Virus record (IMG/VR): IMGVR_UViG_2711768060_000011
DNA length: 36,364 nt
From: a virus
Taxonomy: Duplodnaviria > Heunggongvirae > Uroviricota > Caudoviricetes
Strand: one strand, 5' to 3'
A program made the position numbers and the translations under genes. This document shows positions 28,294 through 31,325 of the stretch, in pieces (position 1 is the first letter of the stretch; every line of letters starts with the position of its first letter). The notes under the pieces were generated by a model. That model did not search any database, was not told where the DNA came from, and saw only the letters and a list, made by a program, of their open reading frames with translations.

Positions 28294-28880
28294 GCGTTAG
28301 TTTCTCCACAACCAGAAGCAATCGACGCCACGACGCCCGGAGCTGCACACTCGCGGGCGTCATTACTTTCTGAAATGCAAAAAATTTTGTAGACAAGTGC
28401 TGCATGCTCCTGCAGCTTCGAAATTGAGAGATACAGCTCGTCGTTAATTGCTGTCTTCTCATGCGGTTCCACTACGCCGTCTTCGATTGCTGAACGAATC
28501 TGTTTTGAATAACTGCCGATCTGTTCAATGACTTCCAGCAGACGCTGGTTAATATCGGCGTTGTCCACATCCTCGACGTCAGGAAGAGACACAAAGACGC
28601 CATTTGCAGACTGCGCCACAGCATCAGCAATGAAGTGAGTGCCACCAGCACGCTGTAAAACCATTGCCCATCCCAGCGGGAAAATCTGATCGCCATCTGC
28701 ACGAAGGCGGTTGAATAAAGCGTTCTCTGTTACATCCAGCCAGTCAGCGGCTTCAGCGTAACCCCCCGGCAACGCCGCGATAGTTTTTCTGACAGCTTTC
28801 ACGTACCACTCAGGCTGTTTTTCTATTTTCCAGTGATGCTTACCCACGGCTATCTCCTTAAAACTGTGGTTACTTTTCAT
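28290..28880 (-). CDS. CII/YdaT-like phage regulatory protein (putative)
   Basis: ORF 28290..28952; start placed at the internal Met (28880) to limit overlap with cro; immediately downstream of the cro-like gene. Confidence 0.45.
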
Positions 28881-29118
28881 CTGATGAATCTTTAATCTTT
28901 TGAAAAATATCTGGACGTAATTTTTCTTTTGATATGCCAGTGGTCTTTTCAATGAATATCGAGAGCTTTGCAGGGGGACGCTTTTCTCTGTTCAACCAGT
29001 TCCAGACATGTTGTTGCTTTACTAAATGACCGCTGCTGGCTGTGAGCTTCCGAGCCAATTCTGATTGACCACCAGCCAGAGCGATTGCCTCCGATAAGGC
29101 TAATTGCTCAGGTGTCAT
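28870..29118 (-). CDS. Cro/YdaS-like HTH regulator
   Basis: 82-aa ORF divergent from the cI-like repressor; HTH-like segment SELARKLTASSGHLVKQQHVWNWL. Confidence 0.7.
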   Translation of the reverse strand: MTPEQLALSEAIALAGGQSELARKLTASSGHLVKQQHVWNWLNREKRPPAKLSIFIEKTTGISKEKLRPDIFQKIKDSSDEK

Positions 29119-29138
29119 AGCTTTCTCCTTTTTTGGTA

Positions 29139-29230
29139 GTTAAGTTGTTACGAGCTGCAAGAATACAACATTAACAACTTTCACCACAACTTTTAGGTGT
29201 TGGAAAGCTAAAACATAAAGTTGTAACCTC
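29139..29230. promoter_or_regulatory. right operator/promoter region between the divergent cro-like and cI-like genes
   Basis: Three copies of AAGTTGT(T)A in both orientations (TAAGTTGTTA 29141-29150, TTAACAACTT 29171-29180, AAAGTTGTAACC 29217-29228) within the 135-bp divergent intergenic region. Confidence 0.6.
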
Positions 29231-29253
29231 ATCAAAAAAGAGAGGGATATGTT

Positions 29254-29940
29254 GTGAAAACACTGGCAGAACGATTAAAGATAGGTAGAGAGAAAGCTGG
29301 CATGAGCCAAGCTCAACTAGCTGAAAAAATTGGACTTTCACAACAATCTGTAGCCAAAATAGAGAATGGCGAAACTCTACAACCGCGCAAAATTAAAGAA
29401 ATTGCAAAAGTTTTAGGTGTATCACAAAAGTGGTTACAACTTGGTATTGAAGACAACGCATCCATACCTGATCTTGTTGTAAAAGAAGCAGAAAGCACCG
29501 CATTAGACCCCGATATTTTCGTAAACATTCCTGTTTTAGATGTCGAGTTATCGGCAGGTAACGGATGTCTGGCTGAAATAGTTGAATCAGCTATTGACTG
29601 GTTTCCGTTAAGAAGAGCAGATTTGAGAAAATCTGGCGTATGTGCATCTAATGCCAAGATCGTACAAATATGGGGGAACAGTTTATTACCGGTTCTCAAT
29701 AATGGAGATCTTGTTGCCGTTGATATTTCTCAAACCGTTCCTATTCGTGATGGCGATCTTTATGCCGTACGAGATGGTGTATTGCTAAGGGTTAAAATAC
29801 TTATCAACTTACCTGACGGTGGCTTGATTCTTAGAAGCTTCAACAAAGATGAGTACCCAGATGAAATACTCACCTTTGAAGATAGACGAGCCAGAATTCA
29901 TGTTATAGGTAGGGTATTCTGGTCATCGCGAACTTGGTAA
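29254..29940 (+). CDS. cI-like prophage repressor (HTH_XRE plus S24 LexA-type autopeptidase); GTG start
   Basis: N-terminal HTH (MSQAQLAEKIGLSQQSVAKIENGE), Ala-Gly cleavage site (LSAGNG), C-terminal S24-like Ser (GNSLLP) and Lys (LLRVKIL); AGAGGG Shine-Dalgarno before GTG at 29254. Confidence 0.9.
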   Translation: MKTLAERLKIGREKAGMSQAQLAEKIGLSQQSVAKIENGETLQPRKIKEIAKVLGVSQKWLQLGIEDNASIPDLVVKEAESTALDPDIFVNIPVLDVELSAGNGCLAEIVESAIDWFPLRRADLRKSGVCASNAKIVQIWGNSLLPVLNNGDLVAVDISQTVPIRDGDLYAVRDGVLLRVKILINLPDGGLILRSFNKDEYPDEILTFEDRRARIHVIGRVFWSSRTW

Positions 29941-30942
29941 TGCATCGAAAAGCATTTCTTCAGAAATAATTTTAAGTTTTGCACCATTATCATCCCTATA
30001 AGATATAGCCTTTTCGATCTTCCTTCCGTGACTAGAGAATTTCCAATCACGGGAGGAAAGCGTCCCAATTACTAAAAAATCCAACTTTTGAGTAATTCCA
30101 CTACTGATGTTCCCACCAGCATTTTTAATCAAATTTTCAACTACGGCTCTCTTTCCTGCAACAAAAGTGCCTGTAAGACAATAGGTTTTACCCTCTAACT
30201 CTATCGAAGCCCCTACATCAATAGGCAGCCTGGTCGCCAAACCATCCACCACCCCACTTTCCAAGTCACATCCTGTGAAGTCTACTAATGCCTTATGTAG
30301 AGTTAAACTCTCATCTTCAGTAATAACACCATCTTTAAGAATTTCCTTTACAAGTGCATAAAGTTTTTTTCCTGGGTAGTTGTTCTTCAAAGCTCCATTT
30401 TGCTCAAGCCACCAATTAAGATATCTTATTTCTTCTTGAGTTAAGTTCCGATCAGCAATTAATCCTTTACATAGTCCATTAAGTAAATGGACATCTACAT
30501 CCTTGGAGTAAAAATCAATTTCAGGGATATCAAGAATTTCCCTCTGTATTTGGAGAAGGCTATTTTTAAGGTCATCACGTTCTTCTGATGTGATTATTCC
30601 ATCCGCAAGAATATCCGACACCCGAGCAGATAGACTTTTTATAACTCCATTATTGATAATCTGCTTTGCTTCAAGTAACCATGTATCTAAGTAAAGAACC
30701 TCCTCTTCACGGACAACTCCATCTGCAATGATTCCATCAATGATGCTAATCAAGTTAGCAAATAACTTGTCCCGGTTTCGTGTAATTAAAAGCGTAAAGC
30801 GCGTCTTCCATACAACCTCCTTTTTTTGATAATCCTTGCGCTCCTTGGCTACTCGTTCAAACCACATAAAGTTGTTGGCAACATTCAAAACCACAACTAA
30901 ATTACAACTTAAAGGTGTTAAGACAACGAACAGGCAGGACAC
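29923..30942 (-). CDS. repeat-containing protein with C-terminal BRCT domain; likely true start at ATG 30867
   Basis: C-terminal ~90 aa (KTYCLTGTFVAGKRAVVENLIKNAGGNISSGITQKLDFLVIGT...) resembles the LigA-type BRCT domain; four ~45-aa repeats sharing ...L.DG.IT.EE...L...L; the first codon at 30942 is GTG and the N-terminal extension overlaps operator-like motifs. Confidence 0.6.
   Translation of the reverse strand: MSCLFVVLTPLSCNLVVVLNVANNFMWFERVAKERKDYQKKEVVWKTRFTLLITRNRDKLFANLISIIDGIIADGVVREEEVLYLDTWLLEAKQIINNGVIKSLSARVSDILADGIITSEERDDLKNSLLQIQREILDIPEIDFYSKDVDVHLLNGLCKGLIADRNLTQEEIRYLNWWLEQNGALKNNYPGKKLYALVKEILKDGVITEDESLTLHKALVDFTGCDLESGVVDGLATRLPIDVGASIELEGKTYCLTGTFVAGKRAVVENLIKNAGGNISSGITQKLDFLVIGTLSSRDWKFSSHGRKIEKAISYRDDNGAKLKIISEEMLFDALPSSR
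30866..30930. promoter_or_regulatory. OL-like operator cluster upstream of the plus-strand early operon
   Basis: Same motif as the right operator region: AAAGTTGTTGG (30868-30878), CCACAACTAA and ATTACAACTT (30891-30910). Confidence 0.5.
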
Positions 30943-31016
30943 CCACGAAGTAGCCCGCCCGGTACGTACGAAGACCGGGATGATTCGTTAGCGGATGATT
31001 TCAGTGGAGAGAATAG

Positions 31017-31325
31017 ATGAATGAGCAGGATTTGAAGCATGTGATCGCATTGTTGCTGGAAGACGCTAAACGTTTGCAGCAGATAGAGCCAAATGCAGGC
31101 ACTGAGGCCCGTATTTTGTTAGCAAAACAGGCATTAAAGACTTGCGGGGCGCAAGATCCTGATCGAACCAAGTTCATGAATTTCATGGCTAACACGATCA
31201 CCCCCCTGCCATGCAATGGAGAGAGGGTGAGCCGTGTTTATCACGACACAATGGTTAAGGCATTAAGAATCGAGCTTGATGGGCTTAGGCGTAAGATCGT
31301 GATGAACAAAATCGTTGCCAACTAA
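31017..31325 (+). CDS. hypothetical early protein (first gene of the plus-strand early operon)
   Basis: 102-aa ORF with GGAGAG Shine-Dalgarno, starting ~90 bp after the OL-like operator cluster. Confidence 0.4.
   Translation: MNEQDLKHVIALLLEDAKRLQQIEPNAGTEARILLAKQALKTCGAQDPDRTKFMNFMANTITPLPCNGERVSRVYHDTMVKALRIELDGLRRKIVMNKIVAN

Follow-up and report, generated by a model that had tools for sequence, protein, structure and literature searches.

In a window of 36,364 bp, the whole stretch of DNA that was analysed, the AAGTTGT repeat picks out the control region of an E. coli prophage not characterised before. The 135-bp gap at 29119..29253, between a cro-like and a cI-like gene, is in our judgement quite likely the right operator region (OR) of a lambdoid, e14/CPS-53-like prophage with an undescribed immunity specificity, in which AAGTTGT would be one half-site of a 15-bp dyad, ACAAC-N5-GTTGT, read by the 434-type helix-turn-helix (HTH) of the cI-like protein. 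The switch in this region is thus likely to be of the ordinary lambda/434 type and to have a new DNA specificity. Our analysis is computational. It draws on the statistics of the motif, the structure and conservation of the dyads, homology of the proteins and the presence of promoter-like hexamers, and from these we infer the identity of the binder, the order of occupancy, activation and cooperativity.

The genes around the gap are those of a lambdoid immunity region. The original prediction placed 135 bp between divergent cro-like and cI-like genes, in agreement with the open reading frames at 28870..29118 (minus strand) and 29254..29940 (plus strand). The former encodes an 82-residue protein with a YdaS-type HTH (Pfam YdaS_toxin, E 7.8e-15; phrog_35, transcription regulation), which RefSeq (WP_000187185.1) labels 'transcriptional regulator' or 'YdaS family HTH'. 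The helix VKQQHVWNW, its putative recognition helix, has a Gln-Gln start and is conserved in relatives. Among solved structures it gave only a marginal match, to Xylella Cro (3bd1, E 0.08), so no DNA site can be deduced from that comparison. The latter encodes a 228-residue repressor (RefSeq WP_000853320.1) with a 434-type HTH and an S24 autopeptidase domain (Pfam HTH_3 and Peptidase_S24, E 1e-14), and falls in phrog_4, labelled 'transcriptional repressor'. Over the first 65 residues it gives an ungapped alignment with the DNA-binding domain of 434 repressor (E 4.2e-13), and its recognition helix, QQSVAK, keeps the Gln-Gln start (QQS) of the 434 helix, QQSIEQ. The protein also carries the Ala-Gly cleavage site and the Ser/Lys catalytic dyad of self-cleaving S24 repressors of the LexA/CI kind; in a 30-sequence alignment (A4), Ala101-Gly102 is nearly invariant and Ser143 and Lys181 are invariant. 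The gene adjoining cro encodes YmfL, a CII-like protein that matches phage CII families. With a CI-type repressor, a Cro-type HTH protein and a CII-like neighbour, the gap lies where OR is expected in a lambdoid immunity region.

The repeat itself is local. Three copies of AAGTTGT(T)A in both orientations had been proposed, and all three are present, at 29142-50 (plus), 29172-80 (minus) and 29218-26 (plus). The first two, both AAGTTGTTA (29142-29150, plus; 29172-29180, minus), form a perfect inverted pair with arms 21 nt apart, and the third is AAGTTGTAA (29218-29226, plus). The degenerate motif AAGTTGTWA matches five times in the window against 0.48 expected, a count that none of 100 shuffles reached, and all five matches fall within 29142-30910. 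The shorter 7-mer AAGTTGT matches ten times against 4.9 expected, with seven of the ten in the same 1.8 kb (29142-30910). The confinement of the AAGTTGTWA copies to this stretch indicates a local motif, and a scan of the whole window, the check named with the original prediction, accordingly found no similar density genome-wide. The count of three was incomplete, however, as the gap holds six GTTGT/ACAAC cores. The additional ones are a further AAGTTGT at 29186-29192 (minus), an ACAAC at 29165-29169 and a GTTGT at 29251-29255, which overlaps the GTG with which cI begins. The motif clusters a second time at 30861-30927.

The unit that is repeated is a 15-bp dyad, ACAAC-N5-GTTGT, of which the 9-mer AAGTTGT(TA) is a half-site. 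We scanned the whole window for ACAAC-Nx-GTTGT at spacings from N2 to N9, accepting at least nine of ten matching positions. At N5, six dyads were found against 1.22 expected. Four of these are intergenic, in OR and in a candidate left operator region (OL). The same scan gave no consistent set of dyads in OR or OL at spacings N2-N4 or N6-N9, though 29186-29203 also fits an N8 dyad at 9/10. Each of the four intergenic dyads matches at nine of ten positions and has an A/T-rich centre. In OR these are ACAACTTTTAGGTGT at 29186-29200, in the OR2 position, and AAAACATAAAGTTGT at 29210-29224, in the OR3 position, with 24 bp between their centres. In OL, ACCACATAAAGTTGT at 30861-30875 abuts the -35 hexamer of the predicted early-left promoter PL, and ACAACTTAAAGGTGT at 30904-30918, which begins 43 bp after the first, is located where PL is predicted to start.

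A position weight matrix built exclusively from sites in relatives, with none from the window, recovered precisely these four dyads as its first four hits in the window. OL dyad 2 ranked first (23.7 bits), followed by the dyad in the OR2 position (21.3 bits, rank 2), that in the OR3 position (21.2 bits, rank 3) and OL dyad 1 (20.3 bits); the fifth hit scored 11.4 bits. The symmetrised consensus of the dyads is ACAACTTAAAGTTGT. Each region of the window was found to have only two full dyads, against three in lambda and 434, which bears directly on the tripartite OR that had been proposed: the gap does lie in the OR position, but it contains two full dyads, and the 9-mer is only a half-site. The core of the third proposed site sits inside the full dyad 29210-29224, whereas the first two are single half-sites, with 15-mer scores of -8.6 and -14.2 bits where the dyads reach 20-24 bits. 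A tripartite OR made of these three sites is therefore not supported as proposed. Conversely, the dyad at 29186-29200 was absent from the original set, as was the whole of OL.

Several other candidate sites were considered and rejected. A 12-bp palindrome, ACA-N6-TGT (ACATAAAGTTGT), is common to OR and OL and was noticed by eye only; it was dropped because the 15-bp reading fits all four sites as well as the relatives. Possible operators inside cI, an exact AAGTTGTAA at 29434-29442 and a 15-mer of 11.4 bits at 29406-29420, differ at synonymous positions in relatives and are thus chance matches. An ACAAC at 30923-27, a conceivable third OL site, is not conserved in relatives.

Promoter-like hexamers lie around the dyads. 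The predicted rightward promoter PR has its -35 hexamer, TTGTGG, at 29184..29189 and its -10 hexamer, TATTCT, at 29160..29165 on the minus strand, with a start near 29153; relatives have TTGTGA or TTGTCA at -35 (alignment A5 and scans) and TATAAT or TATATT at -10. The predicted promoter of cI, PRM, has its -35 hexamer, TTGGAA, at 29200..29205 (invariant in 44 OR variants) and its -10 hexamer, TAACCT, at 29224..29229 on the plus strand (TAAAAT, TAGTCT or TAATGT in relatives), with a start near 29236. Both score 7/12 in the window, below the scan threshold, so they were placed by homology to relatives. At the homologous places, the scan found TTGTGA-18-TATAAT (10/12) for PR in locus L002 and TTGTCA-17-TATTCT in L008, and TGGATA-18-TAAAAT for PRM in L008. 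The predicted PL, TTGGCA-17-TAAATT at 30875-30903 on the plus strand with a predicted start near 30910, is a scan match in the window itself; its -35 hexamer is TTGACA in relatives, a conserved single ACAAC at 30893-97 lies immediately upstream of its -10, and it is predicted to drive the operon that begins at 31017 (plus). The PR and PL hexamers of the window (TTGTGG/TATTCT and TTGGCA) are farther from consensus than those of variants at 84% and 74% identity (TTGTGA/TATAAT and TTGACA), and the early promoters of this prophage may for that reason be weaker than those of the two variants.

These positions suggest how the switch could operate. A repressor dimer on 29186-29200 would cover the -35 of PR and turn the cro operon off. 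The same dyad is centred at about -43 from the predicted PRM start, a position suited to activation; lambda and 434 repressors activate their own promoter PRM from about 43 bp upstream. A second dimer on 29210-29224, centred at about -19, would fill the PRM spacer and lower cI transcription when repressor is abundant. The single half-sites at 29142-48, 29165-69 and 29174-78, in or just downstream of the PR core, would probably be occupied more weakly and cooperatively, or may serve Cro. The OL dyads at 30861-75 and 30904-18 would clamp the early-left promoter. Induction would proceed through RecA-stimulated self-cleavage at Ala101-Gly102.

Comparison with relatives also argues that the 15-mer is the functional unit. 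Related immunity regions were collected through alignment of repressor homologues, giving 24 loci from bacterial genomes (one genome per species) and 80 from viral contigs. Relatives at 57-93% protein identity, which come from Citrobacter, Serratia, Rosenbergiella, Providencia and Proteus, have the same four dyads in matching places. Down to 57% identity, every relative has two N5 dyads flanking a PL-like promoter and one N5 dyad in the OR2 position. OL dyad 1 is conserved in all of them and becomes a perfect palindrome, ACAACATAAAGTTGT, in Providencia and Proteus. OL dyad 2 is ACACCTTAAAGTTGT in L003, L006, L007 and L014, with its weak half on the opposite side from that in the window, ACAAC..GGTGT having changed to ACACC..GTTGT. 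A weak half that swaps sides is expected only if the 15-mer is a functional unit under selection.

Within OR, the orientation of five cores, '< > > > <', is essentially invariant among 55 distinct variants from 95 loci in several enterobacterial genera, and the spacing of the cores in the E. coli-type group is 21, 9, 12 and 34 bp. Dyads, single half-sites and promoter hexamers are all retained in these 55 variants. Across the 44 distinct variants that align without gaps, the invariant columns are the half-sites AAGTTGT, TACAAC, ACAACTTT and ACAAC, together with the weak half plus TTGGAA and the string AAAAC...AAGTTGTA..CT. The stretches 29149-29159 and 29170-29172 vary freely.

The spacing of the half-sites is more plastic than the half-sites themselves. 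The second OR dyad, in the OR3 position, is N5 in the E. coli-type group and either N7 (a 17-bp ACAAC-N7-GTTGT) or imperfect in Providencia. More distant loci (L016-L024), in which identity is under 50%, the helix reads SQQSINKIE and the divergent gene is another one, retain the CAAC/GTTGT half-site some 50-125 bp upstream of the repressor gene, mostly within 18-bp dyads, xCAAC-N8-GTTGT, which stand 24 bp apart in L021 and L024. Most of these loci also have one perfect ACAAC-N5-GTTGT, so that the half-site is constant while the spacing changes. Judged from these sequences, the N5 rule is not universal in the repressor family, given N7 in Providencia and N8 in the distant relatives.

The single half-sites are the sole unusual aspect of the switch, and although conserved they are left unexplained by the dyad model alone. 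The first, S1, is the AAGTTGT(TA) at 29142-50, at about +6..+20 of predicted PR, where the 15-mer 29134-48 (-8.6 bits by the weight matrix) has a degenerate left half. Its AAGTTGT is invariant in the 44 distinct OR variants, and its position is a 9/10 dyad in L011 and L012. Nearly all variants place S1 at 42-43 bp from the core at 29186 (S3), and L007 places it at 32 bp, in each case a whole number of helical turns, which suggests same-face cooperative interactions between S1 and the 29186 dyad. S1 may be a weak third operator with one degenerate half. The second, S2', is an ACAAC at 29165-29169 that abuts the -10 of PR (GTTG|TATTCT on the minus strand); as TACAAC it is invariant in alignment A5 and near-invariant across the 44 variants, and no dyad partner was found for it with the weight matrix (2.4 bits). 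The third, S2, is the orphan TAACAACTT at 29172-29180 (minus) in the predicted PR spacer, where ACAACTTT is invariant in the 44 variants and the 15-mer, at -14.2 bits, is no dyad. Neither the matrix nor a manual check found dyad partners for the single half-sites at a spacing of N5 or N8, and some of them are arranged as direct repeats 9-13 bp apart in promoter spacers. The GTTGT at 29251-29255 (plus; 15-mer -1.7 bits) is of a different kind. The GTG of cI is preceded by GTT in all GTG-start OR variants (GTTGTG, 29251-29256), and its distance from the 29210-24 dyad varies between 28 and 32 bp, which indicates that GTTGTG follows the start codon of cI and not the operators.

The layout first envisaged, in which the 9-bp AAGTTGT(T)A copies at 29142, 29172 and 29218 would be equivalent operators of a lambda-style tripartite OR and each take one repressor dimer, has in its favour that the three exact 9-mers exist, are enriched and have conserved cores, and that S1 keeps its helical-turn distance from the 29186 dyad and lies at a position that is a 9/10 dyad in two relatives. 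We nonetheless consider it improbable. A 9-mer is too short and too asymmetric for a dimeric repressor with a 434-type HTH, sites 1 and 2 are without a dyad partner, and the three sites lie at non-equivalent places relative to the promoters. The scheme also omits two half-sites that are equally conserved, 29186-92, which forms part of the second-best dyad of the window, and 29165-69. Far less credible still is that the repeats are not operators at all, but by-products of promoter sequence (the TTG of -35 and the T of -10 hexamers) or of shared ancestry in a slowly evolving intergenic region. GTTGT does share bases with the PR -35, and with the first T of the -10 hexamers of PR and PRM, and many of the loci are close relatives. 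However, the half-sites are invariant while the bases between them vary freely in 44 variants from several genera, and the dyad appears again at another promoter 1.6 kb away, where it is flipped in some relatives. Copies within the cI coding sequence are moreover not conserved at synonymous sites, which means that background conservation is low.

A dyad read by the repressor thus remains the preferred reading, and the question of who else uses the half-sites arises mainly for the orphans. It is conceivable, but in our view doubtful, that some half-sites (especially 29142-48, 29165-69, 29174-78 and 30893-97) are read mainly by the Cro-like protein, which would share the half-site with CI in different arrangements. 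The Cro-like helix VKQQHVWNW starts with Gln-Gln like that of the repressor, the single half-sites are as conserved as the dyads and are unexplained by the dyad model, and in lambda and 434 the Cro protein and the repressor share operators. Against this, the single half-sites lack a consistent spacing and orientation across genera that would suit a small Cro dimer, the gap between S1 and S2' being N16 in the E. coli type, N6 in L007 and N4-5 in Providencia. No single half-site overlaps PRM, the target of repression by Cro in lambda and 434. Distant relatives with a different divergent gene still have multiple direct GTTGT repeats, and this persistence ties the repeats to CI. Under the dyad reading, the conserved single half-sites may be auxiliary weak sites, possibly also used by the Cro-like protein. 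A stronger version, to which we give rather little credence, is that those in the PR and PL spacers are no degenerate remnants but a functional second layer, in which ACAAC is read in non-dyad arrangements (direct repeats 9-13 bp apart that keep whole helical turns from the dyads), either by CI monomers within higher-order oligomers or by the YdaS-type Cro. If that were true, the switch would have two full operators per region with half-site helpers and not the textbook design of three operators.

The closest parallel is phage 434, whose operators are 14-bp dyads, ACAA..TTGT, with five contacted outer bases on each side of an uncontacted centre (PMC1636474). The N-terminal domain of the window repressor has 434 repressor as its closest solved homologue, and the sites have the same outer ACAA/TTGT, the same 5+5 outer positions and an A/T-rich centre. 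PR and PRM diverge in both, with a second operator region at PL. It is this combination of ACAA..TTGT operators in 434 and a 434-like HTH in the window that predicts ACAAC/GTTGT as the half-site. The differences are nevertheless clear. The window operator is 15 bp long, with N5 between its 5-mers, whereas that of 434 is 14 bp (ACAA-N6-TTGT), and the corresponding N4 spacing between 5-mers gave no match in OR or OL. The fifth base is a fixed C in the window dyads, and the repressor has Lys at the position of Gln33 in 434. Each region has two full dyads and single half-sites in place of the three operators of 434, and the Cro protein is of the YdaS type and not a paralogue of the repressor N-terminal domain. 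The longer operator, the fixed C at position 5, Lys for Gln33 and a Cro from another family show that this is not 434 immunity.

With lambda, the window shares the gene order (cII-like gene, cro, OR, cI, accessory gene, OL/PL), a repressor with an S24 autocleavage domain, and adjacent dyads 24 bp apart from centre to centre, one over the -35 of PR at about -43 from PRM (OR2) and one inside PRM (OR3). It differs in the family of the DNA-binding domain, which is unrelated, and in the sequence and length of the operator (17 bp in lambda). There is no full dyad over the -10 of PR, the OR1 position, where the window has single half-sites, and the predicted cI mRNA has a leader with a Shine-Dalgarno sequence and starts translation at GTG. 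Similarity to the cryptic K-12 prophages e14 and CPS-53 (KpLE1) is seen in the names that RefSeq gives to neighbouring genes, with ymfL, ymfI, xisE and intE pointing to e14 and yfdN and yfdP/Q/R to CPS-53. The backbone is common to e14/CPS-53 and the window, while the specificity module, compared with deposited phage records, appears distinct.

Variable spacing of such half-sites has a precedent in the C repressor of Rhizobium phage 16-3, which has a 434-like HTH and operators of the forms ACAA-N4-TTGT and ACAA-N6-TTGT. The use of ACAA half-sites at more than one spacing resembles N5, N7 and N8 in the family of the window repressor, although host and phage are unrelated. The direct repeats among the half-sites of the window recall in turn the C repressor of phage P2, which has direct-repeat operators (PMC2995052). 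The window repressor differs in having HTH_3 and S24 domains and clear inverted-repeat sites, and these features rule out an operator system of the P2 C type.

A prophage of E. coli O91 RM7190 matches the window at 100% identity. The immunity module of the window occurs in 72 of 5,426 complete E. coli genomes, with 47 at an identity of at least 95%, 24 at about 84% and 2 at about 74%. Deposited phage records contain no close match to the repressor, the best protein identity being 44.5%, and a nucleotide search of deposited phages with the immunity region found none that was close and matched only 49 bp of ymfL. Our search of the literature on the e14 repressor and operator and on ACAAC/GTTGT found no study of the system in the window. 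For an immunity type absent from deposited phage records, there is now a likely operator word, ACAAC-N5-GTTGT, along with likely promoters and a likely OL/OR layout. The same type is also present in prophages of Citrobacter, Serratia, Providencia, Proteus and others. This should be of use for predicting homo-immunity and hetero-immunity among such prophages, for building reporters or orthogonal repressor/operator pairs related to 434, and for studying the shift of a 434-type domain to a site of 15 bp. This is a known kind of switch with a new immunity specificity, and it leaves the general picture of lambdoid switches unchanged.

Additional features of the region and its relatives deserve mention. 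One relative, L006 (JAWQUI010000002.1), is labelled Pseudomonas lundensis and yet carries an Enterobacterales-type immunity region with 71% repressor identity and the same operators, which suggests contamination or mislabelling, or else a recent transfer. Between cI and OL lies a gene for a BRCT-domain protein (29923-30813, minus; phrog_3989, unknown function), convergent with cI, whose last 18 bp it overlaps. The 84%-identity variant L002 lacks this gene, which is likely an accessory ('moron') gene expressed in the lysogen; lambda carries rexAB in the same place, between cI and OL. Downstream of PL, the leader at 30925-31010 (plus; GAACAGGCAGGACACCCACGAAGTAGCC...GGGATGATTCG) is kept in L002, L006 and L014 despite different flanks. 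No Rfam family matched in the window and the predicted fold of the leader is not significant (z = -1.45); the leader could be an antitermination element of the nut/put kind. A terminator-like hairpin on the minus strand, at 30934-30946, lies just inside this leader and is found at the same place in L002.
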